Source: Marsupella aquatica (lineage: Eukaryota; Plantae; Marchantiophyta). From it: DNA of 64,000 nucleotides. The translations under genes were made by a program, and so were the position numbers. Within the stretch, counting starts at the first letter, position 1, and the number at the start of each line of letters is the position of its first letter. The stretch is from positions 15,312,476-15,376,475 of the forward strand of contig OZ316896.1 in NCBI GenBank assembly GCA_973895155.1. The letters are read 5' to 3'. Below, in pieces: positions 11,651-64,000 of the stretch. A model generated the notes under the pieces. It was not told where the DNA came from and made no database searches. It saw only the letters and a program-made list of their open reading frames with translations.

Positions 11651-11764
11651 ACAAACTGTCAAGTCATTACCCACTTACTGATTGATTGACCAACGTTATG
11701 AATAGTGAAATATATTCTCTCCCACAATAATTGCTTACCTATTGGAGTTGCCCGGAATGTGACA

Positions 11765-29272: not shown

Positions 29273-29589
29273 CGTGCACAGCCTGTCCCTAGCTTCGGTC
29301 AACCCCGTCTCCTGCAGGCAGGCTCTATGAATCCGTCGCAGATGAACAACAACGATAAACGGATTGATCGATCTGCAGATTTCCAGTGGAGAACATACGC
29401 TCGTGAATAGATTGGCTTTCTCACCGTTTACACCATTTCTCTCCGTTCCATATTCGGACACGGAGGAAATCATACAGCCATCCCGCTTTTCTACAGAGGA
29501 AATCTCCGCAGGTGAGAGAGCCTTTAAAGGGTTGACGCAGATCGAGCTTCCTTGGCAGCTAAACAAATAAACCCTAGCGGCAGATTAAA

Positions 29590-34578: not shown

Positions 34579-37594
<3,016 letters not shown>

Positions 37595-37857
37595 TACGAT
37601 GGCCGTTTCTCAAGCTCCTCTCCTCCCGAGTCTAGATGCTTATTCTTCCTGCAGTGAGCTATCACCTCCGCTGCTGGTCTCGATAGTCGACGACACTTCT
37701 ATGCTGCGGAGGTTCGCGTTCTCGTAGCTCCTCCTCCTCCGCCACCGGAAAATCTCCGCAACATTTCGCGTTTCGCGCCTACCGAAGAGTCCGTAGTGTA
37801 TTGTTGTTTGTTGTGTAAAACAAACCTTGACGATCGACAAACTGCGTAAATTGTTCT

Positions 37858-38325
37858 GTCGTCGTCGTCGTCCACTCGCTTTTCGCAATGGAGAAGGAGG
37901 ATCGGACCGGAGCTGACCCGAGCCAAAGAGCCGAGGCTCGTCGTCGTTGTTCACTCGCTTTTTGGAATGGAGAAGGAGGAGCGGACCGGATCTGAGCCGA
38001 GCCAAAGAGCCGAGGCTCGTCGTGGTCGTCCACTCGCTTTTTGCAATGGAGAAGATGGTGCGGACCGGAGCTGAGCCGAGCCAAAGAGCCTAGGCTCGTC
38101 GTCGTTGTCCACTCGCTTTTTGGAATGGAGAAGGAGGAGCGGATCGGAGCTGAGCCAAGCCAAAGAGCCTAGGCTCGTTGTTGTTGTCCACTCAATTTTT
38201 GGAATGGAGAAGGAGGAGCGGACCGGAGCTGAGCCGAGCCAAAGAGCCAAGTCTCGTTGTGGTCGTCCACTCGTTTCTTGCAATGGAGAAGAAGGTGCGG
38301 ACTGGAGCTGAGCCGAGCCAAAGAG
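37858..38325. repeat. 79-bp minisatellite, 6 copies, just upstream of eIF4A-III
   Basis: Unit GTCGTCGTnGTCCACTCGCTTTTTG(C/G)AATGGAGAAGGAGGAGCGGACCGGAGCTGAGCCGAGCCAAAGAGCCnAGGCTC. Confidence 0.95.
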
Positions 38326-43078: not shown

Positions 43079-45478
43079 CTTCCATAAAATGTTCGTGGCT
43101 TATTATTTCACCAGAAATTGCCATGACACCTCATTGGAGCCCTCCAGTAATAGATTACTTATTCATTGACATCAAATTGCCATGGTACTTTTTCAGGCCC
43201 TCCAATCACCCATCCTACGATTCTAAAATACCTTGTACACACCATAGTTTGGTCATTAATAATGAATCATTGAGAGTACTTAGGTAAGTTACCCCAATGG
43301 GAGGTTAGAAGGTCATATGGTGGAGGGGATAAAAGCCCAAAAATGAACAGTTCCAAGACAATTGGTTTCAATGTGCAAACTAATTGTTTCCACATATGAT
43401 TGATTTGGGACCACTCTTTGAATTTTTTACTCGTATTGTTTCTTTAGTGTTCGGAGGGGCTTGGCATTTGGTCTTCGTTTTACTTTTTCTGTCTTTTTAG
43501 GTGGTGAGACCATGAGTACGATGGGTGAGCCACCGGACCTTTCTGTTGCCCGTTGTAGACGTCCTCTTTGGGGAAGTGGTCCTCCAAGACCAAAGTATCC
43601 GAGTGATGCCATAGATTACAAGAAGATAAGGAGACCAAATGCCAAGCCTCCAATCTGGATCCCACTTGAACGGTGGGATGAGTGGGAGGAGTTGAGGCTT
43701 TTATAGGATTCTGATCTTGATACAAAGCATGCCACCGGGCATGCCACAATTATGCTACTTGACATGTCATGTGAGCGCATTGAGCACTTGGGAGGTGGCA
43801 AGCAGCGGAGGCAACATCAATCTTGCAAGAGGCATTTGCACATAAGGCACCTTCTGAGCACATGTGTCCACCCAGTTTAGCCGTAGACCAGACCTTGGAT
43901 CCAGACCTGGTTGAGCACAGCATTGATCTCATGAGATGGTTCTAGATATTGTACTCTGTTTCTCTGCTGTTATTTGGTATTCCATTTAGGGATGTCCAGG
44001 GATTTTTTTAATTTGTTTTCAAATGTATGTCTTGACTACATAATAACACAGATGCAAAATAATCAAATTTTTCAATATAAAACAAATGGTCATCAGTCAC
44101 GTTTCCCTGCACATTAATTTCATGACAGCCACACAAAAAAACCTAACATGGTAGGATGTCAAAAGGAACTTTTGGCTATTTCAATTAAAAATAAGTAACA
44201 ATCACCCTATTTGGTGGCTCAATTCAGGCGGAGGACATGAGGCCCTTGACACTGCCAGGCATGCTCATGTTGAGGATCTGCCACCAACCCAGGCTTAAGA
44301 GCCACTATTCTCGGATTGTCTATTCTCAGAGGGCATCTTCTCCGACAGTCTCTTCTTTGAGGTTCTCACTATCCTAATAGGAGCTTAGTGAAAATTAATG
44401 TCATGTCTCATGTCTCTTTTCCATGGGATTGGAACCCTCATAAGGTGATGTTGTTTTTTTCCTATTTTAATAGGGGATTGTTACTCCTGAGTACGATGTG
44501 CATGAGGACGATTATGGATCCTTTGCTCGTGAGGACATGCAAGAACTTTTTGGAGATGATGATCGTGAGGCTCTTGTGGCTCTAGGGGTAGAGGTATTGT
44601 ATAAGCCAAACTATGAGGCTTTGTTGCAACCTCAAAGTCATGGCCAAGCATGATGTTGTGTTCATTTTATCCACAGAGTGATTGATGTTAGACTAGGTTT
44701 TTCTATGTTTGCTCATAATTTTGTCAAATACTTTTGGTGGTTTATTTTAGTTTCATATCCACCTTTTGCAGCTGCCCCAACTGGTTCCGGTGTGGAGGTA
44801 CAAGAGCCAAAAATTGTGTTGGATTCTCAGCCTATTTTCACTGAGGTGATGGATTCCCAAACAGATACCTTCATAGACTCCCAACTACATCCAGAGTCCC
44901 TTCATGCAATCTTGCTAGAGTAGGCTTTATAGAGTGACACTTGGTGTCTGACTTGGTAGATAAACTCCTCCCTAGGTATCACATCCATGATTGCTCTTTG
45001 ACTCCTGGAGTGGAGCATATTAGAGATTTCCAACAACTTTGGTCCATTCGGATTGGTTGTGGGGAGAAGGGTCATGATTGGCCTTTCATTACAGACGAGT
45101 TGGAGACCGGTTTGGACTTGTCGGACAAATAGGGCCATTTCGGGCGACAAATGACATATGTTACCCCAGTCGATCCCGGCCGGGAGACAGGGTCAGGCCG
45201 GGAGGGGTGTGGAGCCGGGCCGGGAGAGAGCGAGCCGGGTTGGGAAGAGGCAGTCGGGCCGAGAAGGGGCCGGGAAGGGTTGGGACCCGGCCGAATCGAC
45301 ATGTGATGATAGGACAAGAGGGACAAGGCAAAGAAAACAACTGAATGCAGATGTAGCTCTCAAGGGGAATTGAACCCCATTTGATGCCGATCAGCAAGAG
45401 CTTGAGAATGACAAGAAGTAAGAACCTCACCCACAGGCACTACATTTCCTGCACATTTGTGGGATGTCTTCGTGAAGT

Positions 45479-45727
45479 GACAAAGACAGGCTATTGTACA
45501 AAAGAGACTGCAGAGGTTGGCAAAAGAAAGAAGGGACACAGCGTACCGGACTACCAGCGGGTTAGGACGGTGGGTGTTGGGGAGGCGGGCAGCAGAGGTG
45601 GTTGACAAAGACAGGCTATTGTACAAAAGAGACTGCGGAGGTTGGCAAAAGAACGAAGGGACACAACGTACCGGACTACCCGTGGGTTAGGACGGTGGGT
45701 GCCGACGAGGTGGGCAGCAGAGGTGGT
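45479..45727. repeat. ~126-bp tandem duplication in a GC-rich, probably retroelement-derived segment (45.1-45.8 kb)
   Basis: GACAAAGACAGGCTATTGTACAAAAGAGACTGC...CGTACCGGACTACC...GGGCAGCAGAGGTGGT occurs twice. Confidence 0.85.
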
Positions 45728-46480
45728 GGGCCCGGGCAGCCCTGAAGGGACAATGATCGGACCTAGACTGCACAGTTGGGCCGGGGCCCTTAAATAGGGG
45801 GAGGTGGCCTGTCAAATGTGTGTTCGTGCTCGGAGCGGGGGAAAATGGTAGCCCGATTTTAGACTAGAGAGAAGGAGGCGAAGCAGAGGCCGGCGGAGTA
45901 GGAGAGGCAGGATGGCTATCCTGGCGCTGAATGCAAATACGTGATAGAGGAGTGTATGCGGGAATGGAAGAGCACCAACAGCGCCCGCAAGTTGCAAGAA
46001 AAAGTGTCCCCTGCTCGACTCATTTACGAGTTATGACTGTGGTAAGAAACAATCTGATTGCTGAATACGTGTGATCTATACCCTCTCGTTTTAAGTCAGT
46101 CCTGGATCTATTTTTCGAATGAGATGGCTGATTATGTCATTTTTCCGTGTCAGTCCCTTTCGTCCCGTTTGTTTTACTCAGGTTCAATGCAAATATATGA
46201 TGTAGCATTAGTGCGTAATTTGCTCGAAATCTACTGGACAGCCACCGTTGCATCTAGATGGAACACTAGGCACGGTGAATGGCATTGTTCGTCAATTTTT
46301 AAAATACACGACTATAATTTGCGAGGTGAAAATGGATATGGAGGCCAATTGGGACATTTTCGAATAGTATACTTTCTCGAGAATTAGTGTTGGTCGGATC
46401 TTTTAAGAGCTCGTGTTCCCCGATCTCTTTGAGTTCCCGAAGCATTCAACCATCCGCGTTTCGCCAGGACTTGACAAAGA

Positions 46481-46954
46481 ATGTTGTATGACTGTTATAC
46501 GCAGGACATCGGGTACTGTGTATACGATTTGGCAGTTTTGGGTTTGACGTCATTTCAGAGTGTGTGTGCTAACTCTGAAAGGGCAGATTTCTTGGAGATT
46601 TATAATGTGCTCAACGATGAGTGGAATCTGGTAGCCATCCCGACGCACGAGACAGATCTTTCCTTCATGGCAGGAGGAAAGCTTCACTCTATGACTGGTA
46701 GTGATATCCATGTCCACGACAGTGAATCAAATTCTTGGACACGTCTCCATTCTCATTCACTTTCTGCACGGGGACTCGTGGACTCCAAGGTAGTAGTTGG
46801 GAAAACTGTATTAGCTCTGGATGATCTGCTTCTGGCTACAGGCGAAGGGAGTGATCAGTATGAAGAAATAAAAGTTTGCAAAGCATGTCTTCTCCAAGGC
46901 ACAGGCTTTGGAAGCGCAAACGAAGAGATTAAATGGGCGGGTATTTTGAAGTAG
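46481..46954 (+). pseudogene. F-box/Kelch-type beta-propeller C-terminal fragment
   Basis: FLEIYNVLNDEW and IHVHDSESNSWTRL are Kelch-like blades; CLLQGTGFGSANEEIKW near the end. No F-box or N-terminus seen. Confidence 0.5.
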
Positions 46955-47547
46955 AGGATATCAAGTTCACAAATTATTCCATGCGGCTTATTGAACTTTG
47001 AAGATCCTCGAGATGGAGAGGGATAAAGAGGTAAAAGACGATTTTGTCACATCGCAGGACTATGAGAAACTTTGCAAATAAATAAATGTCGAAGTTAGGG
47101 ACAGGCCCTGGATGTCGAGAAACTTTGTTGGAGGGCTTGTCCTGATTGCTGATGCATTTGTGCTGCAGGAGATTGTCGTCGCTCTGTTACTGCTAGCGGT
47201 TGAAGGGTCGGGATGAAGATCTTTGTTCATATGTGATGTGTGGGGCACTTGTCGGCCGCGTACATTCTTTGTTTGGACGTGGGTGGAACATGTTCAGTCG
47301 TTCGGTAAGCAGTGACTAGAATCCAATATTTTGGGTATAAACACCGTGCTAGCAAATAGTAAATAGATATTCTCATACAACATCAGAGGAAATTTCTTGA
47401 CGATTTCACACAAGGACTCCAATATATTGCCACGAAATATGAAGTCGAAAAAAAGTCATACAATAAAACAACACTTTAAGAACTCACACTTCTGCCCATT
47501 AGAAAAGACAAACTACAATTGTAGCTGTTCAATGATAAAGCAACAGT

Positions 47548-50500
47548 CTACGTTCTCGTTCCCAACTGCCTATCAAGTATGTAACGGACTTCTCCCAACG
47601 TTAGAATTGGCTGGCTACATAATGTCGAATCGAGCACATCCAATTTGAACACATTCTTGAACACCCAATACACATGTTTGCAAGGCATGTAAGGCTTCCG
47701 ATAAGTATGCTGACGATAGAAATCCTTGCAAGAGCAACATGGGAAACAACAATCTGAACCCAATAAGAGGCGACTGATCTCTCATGTTCATGGGTCCGGA
47801 TACAAAACTATTTCCCCGACGCATTTCCACTCGTGATCTCTCTCTCTCCAATGACCCTCATCACTTCTTTTTCAGAGGCTTCAATTCTCTTCAAATGTGT
47901 TTGGGTAAGATGCACTCTTTGCAAGCATTTCTTCCTGTTCCTTGAAGCGCACCTCACAGATGGGTCAGTTAGGTTGATCCTCTCCGGGAAAAGATTGACA
48001 TCAATCCGTAACGTAGAAGGCAACGGTGCTTCGATTTCATCTCCACGGCCTTCGGAGAGAATAAGTCCTTGTTCTTTCAAAAATTGAATCTCTGCTCCAG
48101 AAAGATTGGTCCCTCTAGCAATTGGGAGATGTGAAGGAACATTGGGAACGTTCGTCTCCTTGTTGTGCTTTGGTGATAGTGGTTGTTGGGGCAAAACCAT
48201 ATCTGATTGTTATAAGGTTGCCCCCTGAACATTCTGCATCCTCTCACAGATATTGCAACAACACCATTTGGATTCGGAAGGCCAACCTTCTTTACTCGAT
48301 TTTGACATTCATCACGACTACCTCCCCGTCCAAGGGTTCCGTTACACACTGGACCCGCACCCCGTTTTGAGGTCCAACGCAACTGCCAGGCACCGGGAGG
48401 TACTTCACTTTCCATTGGGGAAACTGAATGACAATATGCAGTCTCGACAGGTCTTGCAGGCGTCACTGGTGGGACAGAGGATCTCGTTGCTCGACGCGTA
48501 GGTGTGTCAATGACCACAACTTCCTCAGAAGCATCGCTTTCTGACAAATTATGGACCGCATCAATTCCACCGGCTGAAGGCGTAGAAGGCAATTTCTCAA
48601 AATCAGTGGAATGCAGGTTTCTCCTTTTCAACCTTTTGTATTTGGTGAAGTAACAAGGATGGTATCATGCCTGTGCGAGTCTTCTGCCGAGACGTTCCCA
48701 GTTGCATGTCCTTTTCGTTTCACCGATCGAGTTACAACATCACCATTCAATGGAACACTTCTTTCCAAATCAAACTTAGTAGTGTTCGACAGGAGGAGAT
48801 GGGTGGCTTCCTCAAAGAGACGCGGTGACCCCGCCAGGTCCGCCGATCTGAAGGCAAGCTCAAAAATAGTTGGGCCAGTTCCTTTGCTCAATCCCCTTTT
48901 GTATGCAGTATAAGCAGCAATTGAGCAACCGCTCTATTTTGGTCTGTTTTGCATCCTTCAAACAGACCAACCTTTTTTTCTGTTGCCATGCTTTCATTCC
49001 AGCATGCCTAGATTCCGAACCAGTACAATTAGGAATCATCCCAGCCTCTTCGGCACTCTTGCTCTGAAACATTGCACGCAAGGGTTTAGTACATGTAAGA
49101 AATTGCACACAAAAGTGGCAACACAATGGAAATAACAGTAGCGCCAGACGCTAATAAACTGATGATGATATTTCCATGTAAAGAACCGTTTAACACAGAA
49201 TAAAGGTAGTCCTTACATCACTCATAGTCCAAACGGATTATTAGCGCTCGGCGCTACTATTGCGGATAAGGAACTCTTCTATCTCACACATGCTTCACTA
49301 GCGCCGAGCGCTATTAATGGGAACATGCATCCTAGAGCAGTGTATAACTCACCAGTCTTATGAAGTTCCCCATTGTCTCCATCGGACAACCCACCAAGAC
49401 AGCCACCCTTGCAGCATCCAAAGTTTGCCTGAGTGACAATTGCTAGACCTCCACCAGTCATCGATTTCCCTCGAGATTCGATATGCTTTCAAGAAAGTTG
49501 GCGCGTTCCGAACACGATCCCACATCTCCTTGTGCTCTCCGTGCTTTCCATCTTTTACACCTTCTCGGGAATGACGATGAAAAGATTGGAAAAAATGAAA
49601 GGCATCTGATCTTTCTCGCTCTGGGTCGGGTACACCGTCAAAGAACATGTTTCGAACAGCATTCCAACCAGCCTGAGCATTGTCCGCCATGAATCCCCGA
49701 ATTGTAACATCCTATAAACCATTTTCATTGGCAACCTCTAACATCAAACGCCAGGCTCTCTCTAGAGATTTTGCATCTTTGGCCTTTAGCTCACAAGTGA
49801 ATATGGTGCAAAGTGCCCGATAATGATGATCATATACATGGGCACTAAAAGTAAGCCAATCTGCCGTGCTTCGATGCATCACGTCAAAACTTACCCATGA
49901 ACCCTCTAACAACCCACCAGGTTTCATTCTTTGGAGCAGGTCCAGACCACTCCCGTCACCTTTTCCGGTCATTTTAAAGATATGAGCACTCTCGTCCCGA
50001 CAGCCTTGACCAGGGAGCAAGAACCTATGAAGAAAAGGCAGTCGGATACACTTTTGCATCCTCACAAGAAATTCCAGTTCCCCTTTCCCCTTCTGATCTT
50101 GACGGACACTCCTTAACACGGATGCAAACTTCTGAGGAGATGCGACGACCATTAGGGACTCCCAGATTTCCTTCTCTTCTTCAAGAGAGATTTCTTCAAC
50201 AGAGGCCTCGCAAAATGTATTTGTCAATGTCTCAGTCGCAGAGTTTTTAATCCCTGTTGGGGATGCCATGGGGTTTGCAGTGAATCCCTTCTCCAGATGA
50301 GACCTTGCAACCTTTTCTGCCTCCCTCGAAAAGACCCATCGACTGGGATGATTGTGAAATCCCATATGAACAGCTAGTCGCAACATTGGGCCAAAGACTT
50401 AATGTCAACTTTTGCAGATGGATACATGTAGAACATTAGAGCAGGGCAGGCCTCAACGCACATCGGAGGTTCAGAGCAATGGTGACAAACAACTCCACCT

Positions 50501-51351
50501 TCGGAGATCAATTCCCCAACTCGGAATGGGCCTGAAAGTTTTGGGGTTCTTGCCCACATCTCATTATTTCAAAACTTGTTGTCTTTCCACCACAAACAAG
50601 CATTATTTCGACACTGCAGCGATCCCGTACACTGGACTTTCCCGAAATCCCACATTTTCTTTGGAAGAACATTTGAAGACGTTTTCACAATCCGAGTCCA
50701 ATAATAACAATCCTTACCACGATCCATATCTTTCAAACGTTCACCTTTTGCGTTCACACAGTCTACCGGGGGTAACTCAAAAACCACATTCCCATTGTAA
50801 GATGTGGGAAGACTAGGCACTACGTGATGAACAAAATCACTCCCCCTTATAAACCGAGACAATTCACTATGACCTTTGGATTTCAAGATTGTATCCATTG
50901 CACTCTGCCGGTACACAATCAAAGGCACAATCATTTCTCGATCCGCATTAGACTCCTTTTTAACCTCGGATGGGTAAACTGGAATCTTCTCTCCGAGAGT
51001 AGTTGTCGCTTGCTTATCATCTCCAGAACTTTCCGAGAGTTCGATGACATCAAGTTCAGCCGCTGTGGGAGGACGAGTATAGGAGGCCCCAGAATCTCTC
51101 AAAACAAAAACCTCATATTCTTTCTGAGCCTCCAGAGTCCAATATCTTTGACCATGAACAACATCGTAGAAAATTGGAGTCTCCCCCAAACAAACCGACA
51201 CTAACAAGATCGCTAAAATAGACTCCTTGGCGACATCAAATCTCACTCCCAAATATTCCTCTGAAACACGCTTTGATTTAGATGATTCAAGGACGGGAAT
51301 TGTGATTACATCCCGAGTGTCCTTCCTCGTGACAACGATATTTTGAGCCAT
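47548..51351 (-). pseudogene. Mutator-like (MULE) transposase with N-terminal zinc finger and C-terminal SWIM finger, disrupted
   Basis: CTGSLQCRNNAC...CHHC...CPA...RLAVHMGFHNHP (GCM/WRKY-like finger); SFDVMHR..WLTFSAHVYD..LCTIFTCEL; FMADNAQAGWNAVRNMF..FHFFQS (MULE core); CSCKDF..PCKHVYWV (SWIM). In-frame stops at 50569 and 49712, frameshifts near 50386 and 48880, and an intron at ~49.09-49.35 kb. Confidence 0.8.
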
Positions 51352-52132
51352 GGCTTCAAAAGAGGGATATGCATTTGCCCCACGCGAAATGAAATATGTT
51401 TATCATGAGATTCGAGTACGAGAAGTAAACGTTCCCATTCTCATTATAGAGTCGTTATAGATTTGGACGCACTCCATCAATGACGTTTTGTCGTCTTACC
51501 AATGGCAAGATTTGGGTTCATAGTTATTAGCGCCTGGCGCTACTTCTAAGTGTAAAACACTCTTGGGTGAGGACTACAAATGCCAATAATAATAGCGCCT
51601 GGCGCTACCTCTGGGTGCAAACATTCTTGGGTGAGGAGTACGAAGGCAATAAATAATAGCGCCTGGCGCTACCTATTTCAATGGACTTGAAAACATTCAA
51701 TGGAAGGATAAGTACGATAACGCGATACAGTACGAGTCATTAAGTTGGCACGCTTGAAGATCTCCACTGGATCTTCGCGAATCCGATCCGCCCGGGTCCA
51801 AATGTGTCAGAGAGGAAGCGTCCATGAAAGTTATATCAGAGGGTCCTCTTCAAAGTGGGTACCCAGGACCAAGTGCGAACTCTCCTTATATCTAGTCATT
51901 CTCCTCCGATGTCCTCATTGTCAAGCCATTCTTCATTGAGTCGTAGCTGTGGCTCATCTTTCGGGCGCGTGGTTTCCGTTCTTGCTTTCGGGCCCAGTTG
52001 TTCTTTTTTGCTTTTGTGCGCGTTCTTGTTCTCCTTCTCGTCCTCGTTTCTCATTCTCGTCCTAGTTCACGCTGTTGTCCTCCTTCACGTTCTTGTTCGC
52101 GCTTCTTGTTCTCGTCCTCGTCCTCACTTTTA

Positions 52133-52561
52133 ATGGCACCTCCAGGAGGGAAGGCAAAGGAGGAGGCACTTGTCCCGAGCGACACCGACCGGGAGACCCC
52201 CGCATCAAATAGCTTACCGCCTTGGCCGAATGCCGAGAGGACGACGGTTCCAGTCTCGAAGAAGGGGAAACTCATCTCAAAGACGAAGAATGCCCCAACT
52301 GTGGGCCGCAGCGAAGGATCCAATCGGCCAAATGCGAGCGGCCCAACTTCTGTTCCCGCTAGGGATATCACCCCTGCTTCAGTCGGCCATCCAAGAGCTG
52401 ACACTATCTGCACGGGAGTCTCTGTATCTTCTTCATCCATTGAGAGTGATCATTCTTCGAGCGAGGACTCATCACCGAGCAAGCGAGGATTTGCGTGGTA
52501 TGGATCGAGCGACTCGAATGACGACTCCGATGCATACAAGCCAAGTTGGTGGGAAGACTGA
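52133..52561 (+). CDS. Short low-complexity S/P/D-rich ORF inside the transposon
   Basis: ATG-initiated MAPPGGKAKEE...SDDSDAYKPSWWED. No recognisable domain. Confidence 0.3.
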   Translation: MAPPGGKAKEEALVPSDTDRETPASNSLPPWPNAERTTVPVSKKGKLISKTKNAPTVGRSEGSNRPNASGPTSVPARDITPASVGHPRADTICTGVSVSSSSIESDHSSSEDSSPSKRGFAWYGSSDSNDDSDAYKPSWWED

Positions 52562-52866
52562 TTTCCCGTTGTCAGAGCGTATCATTCGAGTGTTGGAGAG
52601 ACTTGGAGGATCCATTGAGGTTGATAGGATCTGTTTCCACTCATTTTTTTCCGATAGAAAATCCATACCGTTCCTTCCTCGTATGCCGGATTTCTAGTGT
52701 ATTGTAACATTTTGTATATGAATGGCACAGCCGTTTGTTTTTACCTCGGTGTCAATGCTTTTGAATTCAAAAGACCAAGCTTTAATTTCGGGTTCTACTC
52801 CCGTGTTTGCATTGTATTTCTGAATGCGAACCTGAGCTATTTCTTTGAAATGGCCGTAAACACTCG

Positions 52867-53085
52867 GCTTATAATGACCCAATTCAAATAAAGAGTGAGG
52901 AGGAAGAAATACTGGTAAAAATCAAAAAACGTGAGGCTGAGATCACCTATTTTGAAAAAAAAAATACTGAACAAAACCATAGTGGCCAAGAACGCCCCAG
53001 ATATTCTATGGAAAATAGAAAACGTCGAAGTAAGCTTCGGCTTATAGATGGTAAGGTGGGGTGATAACGGTCGATTTATTTTCAT
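52867..53085 (-). pseudogene. sdh3: NUMT: 5' part of mitochondrial sdh3
   Basis: MKINRPLSPHLTIYKPKLTSTFSIFHRISGAFLATMVLFSIFFFKIGDLSLTF...LNWVIIS closely matches the recalled liverwort mitochondrial Sdh3; truncated after ~73 codons. Confidence 0.9.
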
Positions 53086-53110
53086 CTTTTTAGTTGACTC
53101 CGATTTTGAT

Positions 53111-53138
53111 TCAAGGTGACAGGATTTGAACCTGTAAC
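53111..53138 (-). pseudogene. trnP: NUMT: 3' fragment of a mitochondrial tRNA, probably trnP(UGG)
   Basis: The minus strand reads GTTACAGGTTCAAATCCTGTCACCTTGA (T-arm + acceptor stem) ~25 nt upstream of the sdh3 ATG. trnP-sdh3 is a conserved bryophyte mitochondrial gene pair. Confidence 0.7.
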
Positions 53139-53983
53139 TGCTGTCAATGTTTTTACTAGCATTCGGCGCTATTATGAGAAACAAAGTGTCTATAACACTG
53201 TCGTGAATGTCTTATCTCTAAAGTATTTTTGATAGCGTTGGGCGCTATTAATGAAAGGAATCACAAGTCAGACCCGTTCGGAGTTATTTTTACTTTTATT
53301 TCAACAAATTCTGTTCAATTGATGTGCATTTAAATAGCGTCAGGCGCTATTGTAATTCATTGGAATATTTGTTGAATGAATGGGTTCATGTGGTCATGTT
53401 TGTTGTCATTGGACTCCGATTTCATCATTTATTTGAATACTAGCGCCGAGCGCTACTAAAGTTGGCTTGTCGACACCTGCACAAAATTGGAAAATTTATA
53501 GACAATTGTGTTGATAGTACTGCCCATAGCTACATTAAGATGGTTTTTCAGATACATTTGAAAGTATGTCACTTGTATAATAGCGCCTGGCGCTATCCAC
53601 AACTACCGACACTGATGTGGTTCCAACGGTCACTTTCCAACAGTAATATTATAGTAGATTGAGGTTCACGGAACCCTTTTTGCTTTTGTCTAGGATGAAA
53701 GTCCAATCGGAGAATGCCATCTGTACTTGGGACCGTTGTAATCGAATGGCTGGTTCTATTGTATCGGTGTCTTAATACGAGGTGGAGATCGCTCGTTTGG
53801 GATAATTTAGTCCGTCTACGCGCTCAGACCTCGGACTGTATGAGTTTGTCAAGTGCGTATGTGCGTCCTTTATTGGTCCCGTACATTTTGAGACGTGATC
53901 GTGACAAGAACTGCACGACGCGTACGACAGTGCCGGGTGGTTGAGTCGCTCTCCACGACAACTTTTGGCTAGGTGATACAAGA

Positions 53984-56900
53984 ATGGGGGAGGCTGATGG
54001 TGGTCATTCTAAGTCCTCTCAGCCTTCGTTCGCTGGTTCAGTATACACCCGTCGCGTCACTCGATCGACTACGTCCCTGTCAACTTCCGAAGCTGAATCT
54101 ACACAGCCCTTCCCGAGGTCGAGGAGAGGGAGAATGGACCCTAAGGACGTCTCCATGGGTGAAGTCAGTGACATAGGCTTATCGATGGACGAGGTAATAT
54201 CAAAGCACGCATTGTCGTTCGGGAAGGATTTTCAAGGATTCGATATGGAGCCACCTCGAATTCCTCTTTGTAGATTGCTCCCCATGGAGGTTGTTCGAAC
54301 CTTACAGAAAGAAAGTGCATCGATCGAGAAGTTGAAAGAATCATTCCGTGTCACCGGGTACAACTCGCGCATTGGGATGCCTTTCTACGTTCAGCCTGCA
54401 AATGCCGATGGGGTACGCGAGATCCGGGACTCTTGGGATCCAATCTGGGTCGCAGAGAACGACAAGTTTGAGGAAGAGTGTGATGCGGACCCAGCGTTCC
54501 ATATTCTAAAAGATACAATGTTTTGTGTGTTTGACGGAAATCATCGATTGTACTCGTGGTCAATCGTCACGAGGGAGAATCCGGACAACTTGAAGTATCA
54601 TCCTCGTGTGATTTGCGTCATTTTCAATGGTGACAGAGGTTTGCTAGTTGAGCTCGAGGCGGCAATGCACACCGTGAACCTGTAAGTTCTATTCGTTAAC
54701 TGTTGTTACCCCTGTCATTCATTTTGGACCAAACATGCTTTGCGAAAGTGTTCATTCCCCAATTTTTGCTAGCGCCCGGCGCTACTAATTCCTTTTCATT
54801 GCATCCAAGCTTGGACAAGCAGTTGTCAAGCCTTCCTAGATTCTTGACGCGGACAGAATTTCCTGAATTCTGTCGCGTGATCTTGATCACTATAAGCCAC
54901 TCATCAACAGCGCGAACATGGCAAAGTTTGAGGCGATCCAAAAGAAGACGAGAAAGGGGTCTTGGTTTACACATAAAATGCCACAGGATGCTCTCATCTA
55001 CATTCTGTGTGTGGACAAAATCAAGTCTTACTCAAATCAATTTAAGTCTGATATGGCTTTAGCCAAAGCTCAAGGGGCTTCTTGGTCAGAAGAGGAGACC
55101 ACAAAGAGGCATGAGGCAATGATGAAGGAGGCGACCAAAGATTGGTCGATCAAAGTGACGAAGATCACCCCTTTACTTCATCCGAATTTTGGAGATTATT
55201 TGGGAACCTGTGCTGAGATGTATCCCGTAACTGAGAAGAACAAACGGGAGAAGAAGCCAGACACAGTTGTATGCACAATGGATCGAGCCAGGTTGTTTAC
55301 TGCTATTTCATACCTAGATCCAAAATTGAGGTGCACCCTTCTAGTAGCCCACTGCACTCCCGAGATTCGGAAACAGTTTTTCCATCCTGAAAGTGTCAAC
55401 GACGAGCCTGTGAAGCAGTGGTGCCATACATGGCATACTTGGAATTCTGTGGAGGGAATTGCAACTGGAATGCTTCACACTTCCTTCAAACAGATTTCTG
55501 ACCGGATGCCGGCTGACCGTCTCACAAAGTCTGGGTGTGAGTCAATGGAGGCCATGCTTAAGATCATTCTCGATGAATTCAGAAACGTTGGGGATCTTGT
55601 CAAGGCAAAATTCTTCAACAACTTGTGGCCTTCCAAATATGCGGACAAGGAACATTACACAAAGCGGAACCGGAAGAGAGCCAAACGATATCTATACCAG
55701 TTTTACATGTGGACGGAGCTTAGATCTCCTGACACTCTGTGGGCATACCCGACTGCATTTCAGAAATGGGTGTCTATCGAAGAGGGAGACGCTCTTGCCG
55801 ACCTTTATTCGATGTACCAGCGGAGGGAAAGTTTCCACCACGTTCATTATCGGAGTGGGAGAGACTTCACTGTCCGTGGTACCTCGACACAGACAAATGG
55901 GATTTACCATTCGACGAAGCTGAGAAGGATGCCTTCATGAAGTTGTAGGAGTCCCAGATCCCTGCCAACTATGTGTCTGCAATGAAGCAAGGTCTCCAGT
56001 CTGATGTTGACAAATCTGCATCTGAGTTACAGAAGAATTGTGAGTCTCTTGTCATGCACGTTGACCGAAGCCGTAAGCCAAGAGCAAAGGCGAAGAATGA
56101 GTCAGCTGCACCAAGTGACTCCACAAGGTCCTTCAAGAAAAGTGAGTAGTCTAAGCGCTTTTTGGTTACTTGTTGGCGCTGCTTATGCAGGAGTTTCATT
56201 AGGAAATTCCTTTGATTAATAGCGCCTGGCGCTAGTCTGAAAGGTTGGACTCATTCAAGTTTCTGTGCCTAACAGGAGGTTAAAAGTCTGACACGGAGGT
56301 CCCGGCTGCCGAAGGGAAGAATGATGCAACTCCTCAGGCATCGGAGGCAAACACTGGAGCTCAAGAAACCCCGGATCAAGGGATCCCGGATGGTGCTGGC
56401 AAATCCATTGTCCCTCTTGACGCAACTAGCACGAAGAAAAAGAAAAAGAGAGGCGCCGGTGAGGACAGAGCAACATCATCTACTCGAGACGTTATTTCCT
56501 GTCGACTCTAGAGAGATGTCGGGAATTTTAAGCGAAGGTGTTCTAGACACTGTTTTGTGGAGTCCAATTTAAACGAATTTTACGATTTGGTATTTAACAA
56601 GGGGATGAAGCCCATGTGGGTTACTAAAGTTGAGGCCTAGGGAAAGGAATTGGTAAAGTCAGGAGACAGAGAGAAGGGAGTAATGCGTGGCGGAAAAGAG
56701 AGGGGCTTTGGTGTGGATGCTGGTTTCATCTACATTCCCACTGGATTAAAACCAACACTTCTTGATCGGAAGGTTCCCAAGTGGAACCTTCAGGATTACA
56801 CTATTCCCAGCTCTTTCTTCCGAGCCATGGAGCCGTTCCTTGCAGACAATGGCCTACTTGCAATTTTACACAGAGGAGACTATGATCAGGTATCTGAAGT

Positions 56901-57729
56901 GATTGCGGCTTGCCAGGATTCTAAGTGTTTCCAGTGTATTTCAACCCACCATGTGGTCATGACTACACCAATGTATAGGCCCCGATCTAATACTCAGGTA
57001 ACAATTCCTCTTGCACATACTAGCGCCCGACGCTACTATCAGCATTCGCAATATCTACAATTCACTTATCTTTCGTAAGGATGAATGGTTGACTAGCGCC
57101 AAGCGCTAATATATGTGTCTGTTTTCTTATACTGCCTTCATTGGGAAACTGTGTTGCAGATATTCACACTTACTCTTAATATATTTTGCCGCATTTCGAC
57201 AAAGGGAAGGGTCCCGAAAGACCCCAAGTTCTGGCCACTATCGAATGAAGAAGACCCTTCCGTCACTAACATTATTGGGTTTTCGTTGCCGCGACATGAC
57301 CCGACTCCTGAGCTCCAATTTGCAGGAAATTCACAATTGCCTGTGGGTTTCATGCAAACTATTTTGGAATTGGTGACTCTTCCTGGAGATATCGTTATGG
57401 ACTGGACAGTAGGTTCCGGTAGTACGTTTGTGGCTAGAGATTATTCTGGTCGCTTTGTTGTTGGGCTGGAAAATCGGCCAGAGTTTGTTGATACTTCCGG
57501 TAAGGTCTTCCTCGATCTTTTACAGAACAAAGAAGTGGTTGCACCAACTCCTCCTAAGAAGATTCCTGGAAGTAAGAAGCAGGACAGGCTCCGTGCTATT
57601 CTAAATTTTGATTCGGAAGACGAGGATGAGGGTGGCAATGCTTCTCAGCAATCTGAAGATGATGAGGTGTCGAACAATGTGGTGGACCTTGGATCTGGAG
57701 ATGAGGACAGTGAAGAGTCAGAAGAGTAA
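53984..57729 (+). pseudogene. Spliced gene: N-terminal ParB/sulfiredoxin-like domain fused to a C-terminal beta-class N4C/N6A DNA methyltransferase-like domain, disrupted
   Basis: Exon 1 has IEKLKESF..GY and VFDGNHRLYSW (ParB-like DGxHR). GT-AG introns at 54682-54910, ~56142-56276 and 56998-57159; the first and last were checked in frame. C-terminal VDAGFIYIPTG...FLADNGLL...QLPVGFMQTILELVTLPGDIVMDWTVGSGSTFVA..SGRFVVGLE follows motif order IV..X-I-II. A frameshift (~55.8 kb) and stops are present. Confidence 0.8.
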
Positions 57730-58597
57730 TTTTCTTTAGCTTTCTTTCTCTCATTGTATACTTTTTTCCAAAGAACTCCTCTACTCCCTTTTGTCTAGAA
57801 AATTTTCCCGATTTCCCGACTTCGACTAAAGAACTCCAGTTCAAATTCTCAGGTCAGAGTGGAATCTTCGGAGGCATTTTCAACTTCGAAGGAACGTCTC
57901 TAGGAACGTTGTACAGACCCCGGAGAAGCCATTTGTTCTCCCCTCTTATGCTGAAAAGGCGGCACGACGGGCAGATTCAGTCAGGACGCTTACTTGGGAG
58001 AGTAAGGGTCTTAGACTCCGGAGAGGCTCAGATAGAAAGTTTGTGCAGAATCACTTCGTAGATGATATTGCAAAATCCAAGTATGTGGACGACAAAGCAG
58101 AGTCCACTAATAGATCAGAAAGTAGCGGTTCTAAATCGGGCTCAGAGTCGAGTGGTGGTTGTGGATCTGGTCTTTAGTTTTCCTTGTTTTATTTACCCAT
58201 TTATGGAGAACGACGACACTCAATAAGAACGCCGTGACGTGTCGGATTAGACTAGCGCCCGGTGCTATTACTGTAGCCGGTAGTTCAAAGAGGTTTTTAT
58301 TTGGTTGTTTTCCTTATAGCGCCCGACGCTAGTATAAATGTACTCAATGGCCGCTTCACGTCCAATACATGTGACAATATTTTCATACCCTTCGGTGTCT
58401 TTTTTTGGGTGCACATTTGTTGGTATGAGTTTTGCTGTTTGTTGTTTGTTGTTTACTGTTTGCTGTTTGCTGTCACGGAGAGATCCCCCTGGAGAAAGCA
58501 TATGTGGAGAAAACGTATGTGGAGAAAACGTATGCGCAGAAAAAAAGTTTGGAGCCATTTGGGGCTCCCACCTCAAAGCTGAACTTTAAGTTCAGCC

Positions 58598-58712
58598 AAT
58601 AATAGTTTGTACCTTAATTTGAAAGAAAAAGTACCAATTTACTAAAATTATTCTTTATTATGTCACCTTCGGACTGAGAAAAATTAATAACTTGCCCCCT
58701 AAACTAGTTTTG
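58598..58712 (+). mobile_element. Mutator/MITE-type terminal repeat, copy 2, truncated on both sides
   Basis: Direct homolog of 38389-38505. It abuts the transposon hairpin on the left and the LINE poly(T) on the right. Confidence 0.65.
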
Positions 58713-60410
58713 TTTTTTTTTAATTAAAATTTATTCCGCGTGAACCCCACGGATGGGGGAAGCAGCAGGCCAGAAGGCAAAATAAGGGGGGCAACAAGGA
58801 AAGTGACACCACAGCCGGTCAAAGTCGAACCATGCGCAGTGGCACAAAGCAAGACAGAGTTAAGACCGGGATTCTAAGTAAGACACAGTAGGTCAATAGA
58901 GCACTAAACCCACTGAGTGATTGGGGCCCTAACGAGTACAGTATTCCACTAGGCAAAACTAACAAGTAATCAACCATAGCTACATCTGCAATTACTGTGG
59001 GCAGGCAGAACCGGACTCAGATTTATGGGTCTGGTAGTATTACAGGTATTCCAGTGCCAACCCGATTTAACCTACACAGCACAATCAGACAGAGAATAGA
59101 CGTCTCACTTTGCTCCTGATAATCCTAATCTGTTCCTGCACTAGAGTATGCTTAGCCTGTGTGATCCTAGAAAGCTTATTTTTTGAACTAGTAGCAGTCG
59201 CCACTGCAGTATGGTGATCCAATGTTTCAGAGATGATCGGTATCTGATCAAAAACCCTTTTTTTGGACAGATCAAACGTCTGATCATTACGTGCATTCCA
59301 AATAGCCCACAGAATCTGATAAATCAAAAAGAGACGAAGTGTGCTCCAAGGGTTCTTCTCAAGCGATAAGAGGATTAACTCTACCAGATTCCGATGTGGT
59401 TGTATGATAGTACCATTTAACCAGGTCTGAGCTTCCAACCAACATCTCTGTGCATGTCTGCAGTTAGTGAATAGGCGGGGGATAGTCTCAATTCTCCCAG
59501 AGCATAAAATGCAAATTCCATCCGACTTGGCAATTCTCACTGCTCTGGATCCAGAGAACAGTCCCTGCGCCAGAACCCGCCATAAAAAAGTTTTTGCTCT
59601 AGTGGACAGATCTGCCGTCCAGATAGTCAACCAAATTTTGCTCCATTCTTCATCAGTATGGCTTACTTCCCATATTCTGTTCAGCCTGAGGTGGTCCGTT
59701 CCTTTAGGTCGCAGCATTTCGTAAACCCGCCAGTTTGGTAGGCCAAACTGTCTCATCCGTGTGTCCTTGTCAAGCCATTGCCATTGACAAGCGAGGGTAT
59801 CAAATCCACTTCCATGGAAAGCAGTACCATGTACCAACCTGATCAGTGAAAGACATAAGTTTTGATCTCCATCGATAATGCCTCTCAAGCGGTTCAGCCT
59901 GGTATCCAAGTGTCTCCAATCATCCCCAGCAAGGGACCAAAAGTCCCCCACCCTCCTGATTCCTAAGCTGCCACAAAGCCGGGTCAATGACACAATGGAT
60001 GCTTCAGGCAAATCATAAAAATCCTGAGAGCACCGGAGTAGATCCTCCAAAATCCAGTGTCCCGGGATCGCCTCAACACCAGGATGGAAGATCAGGTTTT
60101 CCCTAGCCAGTGCCCAAGCACCCCATAGTTGCCCTGTATAAGACAATTTCCCAAAAGATTGTGGTGAACCCAACAACATTAGATCTGTCATAGAATAGTG
60201 GTTCCTGCACACAGATCTGTAGTTTCTCCATTTTGTCAGTCGCAAGTTAACAGCAAATAGTTTAGCCCATTCAGTCTCCGGATTATCCAGAGCCCCGGTG
60301 AACCACTTACAGAGGAGTGCATCTGAATGACTCCTAAAGTCCTTCAGGCCAAGTCCGCCATCAACCTTGGGCCTGCACAATTTATCCCACGCCACCAGGG
60401 GTATTGTGAT
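58708..60410 (-). mobile_element. 5'-truncated L1-like LINE (ORF2 C-terminus, 3' UTR, poly(A))
   Basis: IPLVAWDKLCRPKVDGGLGLKDF, KTFLWRVLAQGL, CILC..ETIPRLFTNC (zf-RVT), LWAIWNARN; stop at 59085; plus-strand T-tract at 58708-58721. Confidence 0.9.
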
Positions 60411-60519
60411 GCCTAGACAGGAATCACTCGGCCGGTTAAGTGGGTAAAGCAGGAAGGCACCCTTGGAACACCTTAGTATAGTGACAAAACAAGGAAAATA
60501 TAAACAATTAGGGGCAACC

Positions 60520-62145
60520 ATGGAACCCGGGCCGAGGCCGGAGGTAAGGCTGAGGGTGAAAACCCGATTAGGGTTAGGGCGCGCTAAGCGTCAGCGGCTA
60601 GGAAGGATCAACGGGAAGAAGGACCGGCAGAGGAGAGGGGTAAGGAGCGCTTGCAGGAGATGGTGGCTCATTTGCGAGCACGAACTAGGCAGACGACTAC
60701 GGGAGGCCAACTACTGTCAGCTGCTTAGGCAAGCACTCGGGGAGAGAGTAGATACCGACGATCAACCTAAGGAGGGTATGAGCAACGTCAATCAAGCGGC
60801 ACATTTCTGGGGATGCCTGTTCGAACGGGCAACTGACTACATCAAGACTTACGAGGACGAGGAATCAGAAAGGGCAGCTCGAGAACGGCAGGAGCTCGCT
60901 CGATTGTGGGAGCTGCAGAAGACGGCTTTCTTAGGAGGCGAACTCATCAAGGACAAGTTCCTGTGGACGCCTACTTCCAATCAACTCGACGATCTTCTGT
61001 TTTGCAAAGACAGCGTCGTCGGCATCCGAGAGGCCATCAAGAACTGCAACGACATACACTGGGAATTAAAGGGTAGCACGGAAAGGTGGACCCAGGCAAC
61101 GGTGCTAGGAGAAACCTCCACGGCAGCAGAGATGAAGAGGAAGGGAGCCGTCAACGATGAAGCCACCCCGGCAAAAAGAACGAGGTCGGCGGCACCAAAG
61201 AAGCCAGCCGAGCAGCAGAGCAGGAGGCAGGGAGAAGCCGAAGAGGAGGAGGTCGATCCCATCAAGGCCATTCCAACCAGGGATGACACCTGGAAGGGCT
61301 GGGCGGCAACCCTACCGGTGGAGGTGCAACTACATTTTGCACGGGAGGAGGATGCATGCTTTACGGCCATGCAGACCAAGAAGTACCAAGGCTTCATGGC
61401 CGGATCCGGCTTGGAGGCCTTTGTAAGATTACCATGGCTGAAGCCGGAGGTACCGGAGTCAGACCTATTAGAATTCGTGGGGTCATGGGAACCCGAGACC
61501 AATTGCACGAGGATATATGGGAGGGATTTCTATCTTACTCCCAAGGTAATTGCCGAAGTGTTTGGCCTGCCGATAGGCAATAAGACCAAAGTTGATACCA
61601 GGAAGACCTTGCCTGACAAGGAGTTCCGGTCGTTCCCCGGGCCATCAACGAAGAATGGCTTCTTCCGGAACACCTGCACCAACCCGCACATAGGAGAGAT
61701 GATCGACTTCTTGCGGGTGACCATGCATTGTAACTTGCCGAGGGCAGAGATCGGCAAGGCACAGGTCTATCTGGCAGAAAGGCCAGACCCAAGCCGGGAC
61801 TACAACGGGTACCTCCTCAACCAATTGAAGAAGATCTTAAAGGAGGAGCAGCAGGTAATCGGCATGGGGAGCGTGTCGCGGCTTGGCTATCACATGCCGC
61901 TGTTGTGCCGGTATGCCAGAGGTCAGACTTTTGCCCCGGTACTTCCCCTGCAGGTAAGGGCACCCGAGGAAGCTCCAACGCCGAGGCCGTTGGCTGAGAA
62001 GCCTCAACCACCTGTTAGTCCTACGATCGAGCAGGTGTTTAGGCCCAGGAAGGAAGACTTGCCGATGCAGCAACCAGGCATGCAGAGTCTGCTGAAACTA
62101 CTGGAGAAAGAAAAGAAGGTGGACCTAGTCAGGCCCGCCTACTGA
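60520..62145 (+). CDS. Transposon accessory protein with a plant-mobile-domain-like region
   Basis: Intronless ~540-aa ORF. GLEAFVRLPW...LLEFVGSW....IYGRDFYLTPKVIAEVFGLP resembles PMD / plant transposon protein domains. Confidence 0.55.
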   Translation: MEPGPRPEVRLRVKTRLGLGRAKRQRLGRINGKKDRQRRGVRSACRRWWLICEHELGRRLREANYCQLLRQALGERVDTDDQPKEGMSNVNQAAHFWGCLFERATDYIKTYEDEESERAARERQELARLWELQKTAFLGGELIKDKFLWTPTSNQLDDLLFCKDSVVGIREAIKNCNDIHWELKGSTERWTQATVLGETSTAAEMKRKGAVNDEATPAKRTRSAAPKKPAEQQSRRQGEAEEEEVDPIKAIPTRDDTWKGWAATLPVEVQLHFAREEDACFTAMQTKKYQGFMAGSGLEAFVRLPWLKPEVPESDLLEFVGSWEPETNCTRIYGRDFYLTPKVIAEVFGLPIGNKTKVDTRKTLPDKEFRSFPGPSTKNGFFRNTCTNPHIGEMIDFLRVTMHCNLPRAEIGKAQVYLAERPDPSRDYNGYLLNQLKKILKEEQQVIGMGSVSRLGYHMPLLCRYARGQTFAPVLPLQVRAPEEAPTPRPLAEKPQPPVSPTIEQVFRPRKEDLPMQQPGMQSLLKLLEKEKKVDLVRPAY

Positions 62146-63954
62146 CAGATTACCTGCCCTTGACCGAGTCAACTCTCCATCGGCCTGACTGGGTCCACCT
62201 TCGGCTTCAGCCTCGACACCGGCCTCGACAATACCCACGGCTTCGGCCTCAGCCACTCCCACGGCTTCGGCTTCAGCCACTCCCACGGCTTCGGCCTCCC
62301 CTTCCCCTAGGGTAGTTGGATCTGTAGCCGTGACCCTGTCTGGGGTCGGTGCTGGGTCTACCTCCTTGATCACCACGGCCTGTGAAGTCGTATTACTCCT
62401 TGACCCTGCAGGTTTCCGCTTCTTCTTCGTTGGTGGCTCGGCAGCTGGTCCCTTCCCCTTCCCACTTACTTCCGGCACTGGTGCAGGTGGCGCGGCTTGT
62501 CCTTCGGCAATTACCACCCCTGGTAACTGGTTTGTCCCAACGGGAGATGGACCTGCTGCAGCTAAGCATTTAAATACTGCGGCTTGTTTCTTCAGCCGCT
62601 CTGTTTGGTTGTCGGCCCGCCGCTGTAGGTTCTCCATCTTCCTCGTGATTTCCTCCAACTCCTCTTGGGTTTCATCCAGGTCCTTACGTGCCCCCTCCAG
62701 CTCGTTTTTGGCCTCCTCCTGCTCCCTGTGGGCTTCCTCCAATTCCTTCTTCAAGGTAGCCCTCTCCTCCTAGGTTGCTCTTAGCTCCTTGTCGAGCTCT
62801 GCAATGATGACAGACTCCATCTGGTTCATCTTGGCGTAAGTCTGTTCGAGCATCTCATCCTTCTCCCTTAGGTCGGCCTTGAAGCTGGCCGTCAGGGACG
62901 CAAGCTCCTGCTGCAGCGCCATAATCCCTTGATAGGATTTCCCTAACTCGACCTCCTTCTGCTCAAGGGCTCCGCGGATTTTCTCGAGCTCCCCTTTCAA
63001 CGCCCATTCCTTTCTTTGGGTCTCCGCCATGGCCCGGCTGTTGGCTGTTATGTGGGCCTCCTCTGTATTCTTCAGCTCTTGCTTCCACTTCTCCCTCTCT
63101 TTGATCGTGTCGACCAACTCTTCCTGCGTCTGAGTCAGTTTATCCTTGATATTCTGATTATCAGCCTGCGCGGCGTCCAACTGCCCCTGCATGATGTTCA
63201 GCTCATGTCGTTTAATCCGCAGTTCATCTTGGGCTTTCTTGGCCGCCCTTAGATCTTCAATCTCGGCTTCCATCCTCCTAAGCCGCCGAATGACCTCGTC
63301 CTTCTTGCTTCTCTCTAAAGCCACCGCTTCTTCTAATTGGTGCTTCTCCAACTGCTCCCTATGGAAAAAGGGTCCTACCTCCAACTCCTCTCCAAAGATG
63401 CCGAGCGCAAGTTCCCCACACATCTCACCATACTCCAAGGCTCTATTCTTAGCGTAGGTGGAGTAAGTAGAAGTGATCGGCATCGCCCATCGTGGCCTCT
63501 GCTCCCAAGCCGTCCTGCGGATCTCTTCAATCATGGCTAGAGGTTTGCTTCCTTTTTCGGCTAGCCGCCTGATGTCCTCCGGCCAATCTCCTCCTGGTAA
63601 ATCCTTTTCCTTAGCCAGGGCGGCCTCTTCCTCCTGCTTGATTCGCTCCTGAAATTCCTGCACCGTCTGTTTTATGTCGTCGAAGCTCGGGGGAGCAACA
63701 TCTGGTGGGGGAGACTCAGGGCTACTCTGCTGGTTGGGGTCCCCTCGCACTACCCTTGGAAGTGTGGGGACAAACCGGCCACAGGTCCTTACTCCTGGAA
63801 CGTGATGGTCCGACCCATAGCCGGAATTATCATGGCTGCAGTCCTCCACTGCCTCCTCTACCTCTTGGACGTCCGGCTTCTCCCTCTCCTCTTCGTCGGT
63901 AGGAGCTTCAGGCAATTCTGCCTCAGATTCGGAGCTTGAGGTTCCCACGTACAT
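62125..63954 (-). pseudogene. Coiled-coil, transposon-associated protein with one in-frame stop
   Basis: ORFs 62770-63954 and 62125-62754 share a frame, separated by TAG at 62770-62772. Long E/K/Q heptads and a 21-nt repeat (AEAEAVGV). May continue beyond the window. Confidence 0.55.
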
Positions 63955-64000
63955 TCGAACACCTGGCTTGGATTCCGGCCTGATTCTCTCCTTGTCTCCA

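Follow-up and report, generated by a model that had tools for sequence, protein, structure and literature searches.

Organization of the element

The 64,000-nucleotide stretch of Marsupella aquatica contig OZ316896.1 analyzed here (positions 15,312,476 to 15,376,475, hereafter the window, numbered from its first letter) is plant DNA with intron-containing host genes. It harbors a multicopy MULE-like element (MULE, Mutator-like element) of ~11 kb at 47342..58480, which carries a transposase gene, an accessory gene whose product is predicted to combine ParB and methyltransferase folds, and 17 copies of a short palindrome. The element was delimited by a depth plateau and an inverted repeat; its ends are approximate, and the right end may lie at ~58700. 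When contigs were compared with 44001-61000, the X1 depth (contigs of four public runs) rose from 15-119 in the bins of 44001-47402 to 390-760 between ~47340 and ~58740, and the X2 depth rose from 250-2100 to 4000-12000 over the same interval, contig depth not being equal to copy number. One contig with a unique flank stops at 47371. The plateau and the thousands of diverged contigs found for X1 and X2 indicate a multicopy family. An imperfect inverted repeat of ~50 bp (~47344-47392 and 58431-58478) lies near the borders and does not fix the true ends, and we found no convincing target-site duplication around the approximate element ends. An Rfam scan of 47000-59000 gave no match. With its catalytic motifs present and its termini only approximately placed, the element is best filed as MULE-like. 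The copy in the window is decayed by stop codons and frame breaks, and other contigs differ there by single-base indels at several places. The interval 58431-58710 consists of short tandem repeats followed by a C-run, and its bin depth in organism C is far above that of most of the element; it may be a terminus common to other families or a separate repeat.

The transposase gene lies on the minus strand. Exon 1 (49353..51351), delimited by tblastn of P0156, P0158 and P0161 and by alignment, contains a putative Cys/His zinc-finger region, the first two catalytic Asp residues (in FDVMH and ADNA) and the motif DAFHF. It is followed by a predicted intron at 49065..49352, placed by its GT..AG signals; the same intron position is found in the related locus L001 described below and at the ends of the open reading frames (ORFs) of P0156-P0161. 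Exon 2 (47808..49064, 3' end approximate), identified by tblastx against L001 and by translation, carries the putative catalytic Glu (GSESRH). The frames of both exons are broken. Seven longer homologues share 50-63% identity with the transposase, and FDVMH, ADNA, DAFHF and the Cys/His positions are conserved in their alignment. The exon 2 motif occurs in the forms GSESRH and GAESVH. We take this motif set, which includes (C/D)xxH, to be the MULE DDE pattern. Searches against Pfam and PDB profiles returned neither a MULE match nor a WRKY-GCM1/GCM zinc-finger match, and the Cys/His pattern was judged by eye. No relatives of the transposase were found in viral contigs and prokaryote genomes.

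The accessory gene lies on the plus strand and has four exons. Exon 1 (53984..54681, start codon predicted) was assigned from homologues and a structure model, and encodes a ParB/Srx-fold domain with the motif DGNHRL. Intron 1 (54682..54809) has a donor at which the ORFs of relatives also end, and its acceptor is uncertain. Exon 2 (54810..56141; tblastn, model and translation) encodes an all-helical domain, interrupted here by stops and a frame break. After the predicted intron 2 (56142..56275), exon 3 (56276..56997; tblastn and translation) encodes a linker and the first half of a methyltransferase fold, with YIPT at the position of motif IV. After the predicted intron 3 (56998..57159), exon 4 (57160..57729; Pfam N6_N4_Mtase, E 1e-8) encodes methyltransferase motif I (GDIVMDWTVGSG) and an acidic tail. 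Exon and intron limits of both genes are predictions from tblastn of relatives and GT/AG signals. The four-exon gene matches the Riccia protein P0154 (1207 amino acids, aa) over its full length, and named homologues of the accessory protein occur in the liverwort Riccia sorocarpa and in Adiantum ferns, where their annotation goes no further than hypothetical protein. A total of 184 clusters are homologous to exon 1, and their short ORFs mostly end at the same donor. The 26 Riccia clusters found are spread over contigs of 8 different lengths, which fits a dispersed element.

Two further features lie between the genes. A mitochondrial sdh3-like fragment has been captured at 52867..53139 on the minus strand (Pfam Sdh_cyt, E 2.6e-14). 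It is carried by part of the family only, since X1 and X2 contigs skip 272 bases there (joint 52866->53139). At 51947-52561, a Ser-rich stop-free frame of 204 aa with family depth and no Pfam match is a possible third ORF or 5' exon.

Palindromic sites in the non-coding regions of the element

The palindrome TAGCGCC-N-GGCGCTA occurs 17 times between 49139 and 58331. In the window, TAGCGCCNGGCGCTA gave 16 matches at ≤2 mismatches against 0.01 expected by chance, a number equalled in 0 of 100 shuffles; the 17th palindrome, at 53157, has 3 mismatches to TAGCGCCNGGCGCTA and was recovered with a degenerate pattern. The form TAGCG-N5-CGCTA is exact in 15 of the 17. A position weight matrix (PWM) built from the sites scored the palindromes at 24.8-32.4 bits, the next best spot in the window reaching 4.4 bits, and scanning with it revealed no lone half-sites inside the element. 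No copy was found in the other ~53 kb of the window; all statements on confinement hold within its 64 kb.

Three palindromes (49139, 49242 and 49299, spanning 49139..49313; pattern and PWM matches) lie in the transposase intron, and three (51528, 51593 and 51657, spanning 51528..51671; pattern and repeat search) form part of a 64-bp tandem repeat located upstream of the transposase. Five (53157, 53233, 53335, 53441 and 53581, spanning 53157..53595; pattern matches) precede the accessory gene, whose introns hold one at 54770 (intron 1), one at 56220 (intron 2) and two at 57021 and 57094 (intron 3). The last two (58253 and 58317, spanning 58253..58331; pattern matches) are located downstream of the accessory gene. 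None of the 17 overlaps a predicted exon. With a non-coding share of 0.42, hand arithmetic gives P = 4.5e-7 if the 17 sites are independent and ~0.002 if they are counted as 7 clusters. The flanks of the sites are no more alike than shuffles, except in the tandem trio at 51528-51671. The pattern scan and the PWM thus bear out the initial annotation of this DNA, which had described 17 copies in this same arrangement, absent from inferred exons and from DNA outside the element, with flanks that mostly differ. Joints between contigs (47450->58251, 58275->47465 and 57039->47458) suggest an 18th palindrome at 47450-47465, downstream of the transposase, in other copies of the element; it is absent here.

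The extended symmetrized consensus is WTAN-TAGCGCC-N-GGCGCTA-NTAW, and core positions 1-4 and 12-15 are invariant. All 14 deviations from the consensus are C>T or G>A, and 12 of them fall in the inner four positions, a pattern such as would be expected from decay of methylated cytosines. With CG and CHG targets in every site, host methylation could abolish binding. The observed/expected CpG ratio was 0.70 in exons, 0.92 in masked non-coding parts and 0.61 outside the element, values that are suggestive at most and were not used as evidence.

Conservation of the sites in related copies and families

To all appearances, the palindromes are a feature of the element family that is under selection. 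Two comparisons, which cover the transposase gene and its intron, concern related families. L001 is the one related locus among 56 candidate stretches in metagenome contigs, and its transposase is 39-61% identical by segment. The same intron of L001 contains three copies of TATTGC-TAGCGCC-GGCGCTA-GCAATA, in which the half-site is kept and the spacer base is gone: TAG[CT]G and C[AG]CTA are separated by 5 bases in all 15 exact-type sites of the window and by 4 in all 3 L001 sites. The sites lie at ~33/117/207 of the L001 intron and at ~40/97/200 of the window intron, whereas the introns with the motifs masked are unalignable (score 59, shuffle mean 69.5). L001 is thus one direct instance of the expected variant palindromes in related families. 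In addition, P0161, a transposase homologue with 54% identity, reads into the intron and ends in ASARR-stop, the translation of a one-base-spacer site ~36 nucleotides from the donor; the window intron reads INSARR-stop at the corresponding site. This type of ending was matched by 1 of 190 proteins (P0161 itself; shuffle mean 0.0), and the other 7 transposase tails, some of them too short, gave no site-type peptide signature.

Within the family, 35 variants in 53140-53700 are common to at least two runs; one falls inside a site, where it restores the consensus, and none breaks a site (p ~0.01 over 40 of the 71 variant rows, shared variants not being independent). At loose contig ends, sites are retained where their flanks have diverged. 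The base adjoining the core is unconstrained, pairing with its partner in only 3 of the 17 sites, whereas one position farther out A occupies 28 of 34 half-site views. This conserved-free-conserved pattern fits read-out by a protein and not copying by fold-back. We also considered a function as an RNA or single-stranded DNA hairpin, which is not favored, with no compensatory changes, sites also outside the predicted coding spans, and adjacent bases that so rarely pair; the palindrome cores fold as any palindrome would.

Predicted architecture of the accessory protein

The N-terminal domain of the accessory protein is predicted to adopt a ParB/Srx fold. The structure model of exon 1 has a pLDDT of 90, and Foldseek relates it to the ParB/Srx N-terminal fold (best E 0.012, prob 1.0). 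With VIA, the top 11 rows were all Noc, ParB, KorB or PadC, the best being Noc (Z 8.4, root-mean-square deviation 2.8, 98 residues aligned), and KorB reached Z 7.8. Weak Pfam matches to DUF1015 and DndB were also obtained. A word search returned no longer homologues of exon 1, and none of the ParB exon was found in prokaryote genomes; P0154 gave nothing against phages, and P0155 nothing against solved structures. In a language-model comparison, the nearest look-alike of the ParB-plus-helical region was DUF3723 (0.95 for exon 1 and 0.90 for residues 160-660 of P0154), a match that serves as a lead only and was not confirmed by a Pfam hidden Markov model (HMM). Other look-alikes of these two queries were unnamed cnidarian and basidiomycete clusters, which suggest a wider ParB-like module on eukaryotic mobile elements.

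The C-terminal domain has a β-class amino-methyltransferase fold, identified by Pfam (N6_N4_Mtase, E 1e-8, the only family with a strong score in the accessory protein); its best solved relatives are CcrM (E 6.8e-5) and DpnA (E 2.4e-4). The domain has the permuted order, with motif IV before motif I, and its S-adenosylmethionine (SAM)-binding motif I is intact. The catalytic motif of such enzymes is defined as [DNSH]PP[YFW] in the available text of PMC4738411. Here, motif IV reads D-[LM]-[PS]-[ST] in all 11 Riccia sequences aligned of the 26 found, and YIPT in the window, without the aromatic residue of DPPY. Since the domain keeps the SAM motif and not DPPY, binding or shielding of cytosines would be a more likely role for it than conventional methylation. 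In the fern homologue P0113, a NIF/FCP1-like phosphatase domain was observed in the C-terminal region, after a short methyltransferase-like remnant.

The initial annotation had predicted an accessory protein combining ParB and methyltransferase parts, and the modeled fold of the one and the profile match of the other agree with it. Its label "parS-like" for the palindromes holds as an analogy. It does not hold further, given GNHR in place of GERR, the lack of a helix-turn-helix (HTH) match, the lack of a ParA match among 18 ORFs scanned (15 of them in the element), and the non-canonical catalytic motif of the methyltransferase.

Comparison with known systems

The closest counterpart in layout is the VANDAL/VANC system of Arabidopsis. 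As far as the available parts of the reports describe it (PMC5735166, PMC10398659), the target motifs of VANC are found in introns as well as in non-coding DNA between genes and at the termini, and the effect spreads over the element. In both systems a MULE carries an accessory gene, the motifs are restricted to non-coding DNA (17 of 17 here), and the motif differs between families. However, the VANC motifs given in those parts are 8-9 bp long, non-palindromic as written and arranged in tandem arrays, whereas the sites described here are 15-bp dyads (23 bp with flanks), only 3 of 17 of them in tandem. The accessory protein also differs from VANC in its ParB and methyltransferase folds, and an anti-silencing role would be assigned to it by analogy.

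In bacteria, KorB slides after loading at TTTAGC(G/C)GCTAAA, and the same scheme serves VirB and BisD in relieving silencing or activating a mobile element, according to the accessible part of PMC13768133. The same source gives the KorB motif as GARRYR, which departs from GERRxR, yet KorB hydrolyzes cytidine triphosphate. Like KorB with its operator OB (IncP-1), VirB and BisD, the present element pairs a ParB N-terminal fold with a palindromic operator on its own mobile element, and the KorB operator shares the invariant TAGC...GCTA. Unlike them, it resides in a eukaryotic host, contains introns, has GNHR instead of GERR or GARR, lacks an HTH match and a ParA match, and carries a fused methyltransferase fold.

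Other eukaryotic systems share single aspects. In the portions available of 10.64898/2026.08.24.746577, AtMu1 and the TnpA of Spm are element-encoded readers of element-specific motifs in plant DNA transposons, as is proposed here; AtMu1, however, binds at terminal inverted repeats (TIRs) through a transposase-derived reader, whereas the sites described here are internal and a separate ParB-fold gene is present. The DUF3723 cargo proteins of fungal Starships (10.1101/2021.12.13.472469) are likewise conserved cargo of a eukaryotic mobile element, and DUF3723 is the nearest language-model look-alike. Starships differ in their mobilizing enzyme and in the lack of an HMM match, and no operator palindromes are described in the available text of that work. 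Eukaryotic amino-methyltransferases from phage ParB-terminase loci and Marchantia DN4MT1 (PMC4738411; 10.1101/2021.02.12.428880) are further bacterial-type N4/N6 folds in eukaryotes, some of them linked to ParB-type domains. As those sources present them in the parts accessible, they belong to algal, chytrid and haptophyte clades or are host sperm enzymes, and are not MULE-borne fusions of a ParB N-terminal domain with a β-class fold of degenerate motif IV.

A scan of viral contigs yielded 28 loci with paired TAGCG-N5-CGCTA (L002-L029). Among their neighboring ORFs scanned, 11 of 16 had HTH and/or Peptidase_S24 matches (10 of them Peptidase_S24). We rejected these loci as relatives, as 0 of 28 had similarity to the element proteins, and read them as convergent CI-type operators. 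This shows that the TAGCG-N5-CGCTA architecture suits dimeric readers but recurs independently. Many of these loci resemble phage CI/Cro-type switch regions, with 2-4 TAGCG-N5-CGCTA operators of variable center and overlapping promoter-like sequence.

One defining feature each of parABS, VANC and canonical active β-class methyltransferases was tested and is lacking, and the element is for this reason none of the three. By analogy, it is likely that the element works like VANC and like KorB/VirB. No published description of a ParB-methyltransferase MULE was found, although supplements (e.g. of PMC4738411) or bryophyte repeat libraries could hold the family.

Proposed mechanism and alternative explanations

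The palindromes are a real and probably functional cis-code, and we consider it likely that they are read by a protein encoded by the element. The initial annotation had proposed them as recognition sites for the accessory protein or the transposase. To this, L001, P0161 and the shared variants add a family-wide feature under apparent selection. The accessory protein is favored over the transposase as reader because the internal, intron-rich layout over both genes matches that of VANC and because a ParB-type fold binds palindromes as dimers. In the model that we propose, a dimer of the accessory protein would read the two TAGCGCC half-sites, load there, spread along the element in a nucleotide-gated manner as KorB, VirB and BisD do, and protect the element from host silencing, the outcome known for VANC; the methyltransferase fold would act as a cytosine-binding or shielding module. 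Drawn from these analogies, the model as a whole has about an even chance of being correct.

Several observations weigh against it. Between the families that share the half-site, the transposase is more strongly conserved than the accessory protein, which would suit a transposase reader just as well. A VIA Z of ~8 lies close to the background that the tool states for common folds, although the top rows all belong to a single family, and the best Foldseek E value is 0.012. GNHR replaces the phosphate motif GERRxR in at least 104 of 150 homologues. The middle all-helical domain (pLDDT 78) has no ParB-HTH among its top matches (best Foldseek E 1.3), its best VIA rows being unrelated bundles (Z 6.8), with residues 107-171 barely covered. 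The likeness to the KorB operator in TAGC...GCTA may be chance. The evidence from P0161 is a peptide only, the variant test is limited by its coverage and by non-independent variants as given above, and one X5 contig carries private changes at two positions that break a site. Finally, L001:1172-1231 forms a perfect 60-bp fold-back centered on one palindrome in the transposase intron.

The strongest alternative is that the N-terminal zinc-finger region of the transposase reads the palindromes, for self-activation or transpososome assembly, and that the accessory protein has another role. Families with transposases of 50-60% identity, conserved Cys/His positions included, have the half-site in common. 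In the parts available of the respective reports, the transposase of AtMu1 needs no accessory protein to bind cognate motifs and activate its family (10.64898/2026.08.24.746577), and MULE transposases carry WRKY-GCM1 DNA-binding domains (PMC1702500). However, AtMu1 peaks are described at TIRs in the former, whereas the sites here are internal, in introns of both genes, with none in the terminal inverted repeat. Such an internal layout matches that of VANC, an accessory protein, and the transposase gave no profile match to the GCM domain. We regard a transposase reader as a serious but less likely rival.

It is improbable that the palindromes have no reader and are self-copying filler that only non-coding DNA tolerates, either products of fold-back or template switching or traces left by a tiny TA-inserting element. 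The core is flanked by TA on both sides, three sites of the window are a tandem repeat, and the three copies in L001 share 26 bp; the hairpin centered on one of them indicates that copying by fold-back can occur. Yet no copies lie in ~53 kb of host DNA, and outside the tandem trio the flanks resemble one another no more than shuffles do. The change from an unconstrained base beside the core to constrained bases farther out, the survival of half-site and intron position while the rest of the intron turned over, and the avoidance of sites by shared variants likewise speak against filler.

Still somewhat less probable is a host transcription or chromatin factor whose sites the element has accumulated. 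GC-rich palindromes with CG are common targets of host factors, and the half-site is stable across families. However, no sites occur near host genes in the window, and a spacer that differs between element families (0 or 1 base) suits a private, co-evolving reader. Least probable of all is an accessory protein with amino-methyltransferase activity that would mark the central CCNGG/CCGG (N4-methylcytosine, or N6-methyladenine nearby) as a self-label blocking 5-methylcytosine or licensing transposition: the β-class fold nearest to CcrM and DpnA, the intact motif I and cores of the CCNGG type, which are targets of bacterial cytosine methyltransferases, would suit it, but motif IV lacks the aromatic residue of DPPY both in the 11 Riccia sequences and here, and conservation within the site is lowest at its central bases.

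How a transposon protein that binds few short motifs affects a whole element of several kilobases is an open point in the VANC work, as stated in the available text of PMC10398659. For this question, a ParB-type clamp acting as in the preferred model would offer a concrete and testable spreading mechanism; the 15-bp site is defined, and a sister family provides a natural variant of its spacer. ParB clamps have been described in bacteria, and one acting on plant chromatin would be a surprise. If the model is true, sequence-specific anti-silencing was invented independently in spore plants from bacterial parts, and the system could yield a site-loaded epigenetic tool. Even with the transposase as reader, a little-described transposon family with liverwort and fern homologues and its cis-code have been defined. 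We tentatively extend the model to a broader scenario that we hold to be doubtful. In it, MULEs of spore plants would have co-opted a bacterial ParB-type nucleotide-gated sliding clamp whose loading sites are family-specific palindromes in introns and promoters and which spreads over 11 kb, with a module of methyltransferase fold guarding against host 5-methylcytosine. Such a protein would be a eukaryotic anti-silencer of the VirB/KorB kind, of which Starship DUF3723 might be a second instance.

Other features of the window

Within the element, 50689-50720 in a transposase exon and 53390-53421 in the region upstream of the accessory gene share a 32-bp inverted similarity (81%). To the right of the element, 58712-64000 contains, on the minus strand, a LINE (long interspersed nuclear element)-like 3' part that includes zf-RVT, and after it a repeat of very high depth with long ORFs. 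The host genes at 2260-4215, 28964-29584, 35048-37609 and 37859-38325 presumably comprise a fucosyltransferase-like gene, an intronless SRP9-like frame and an eIF4A3-like helicase gene, and a 79-bp tandem array lies upstream of the last of these.

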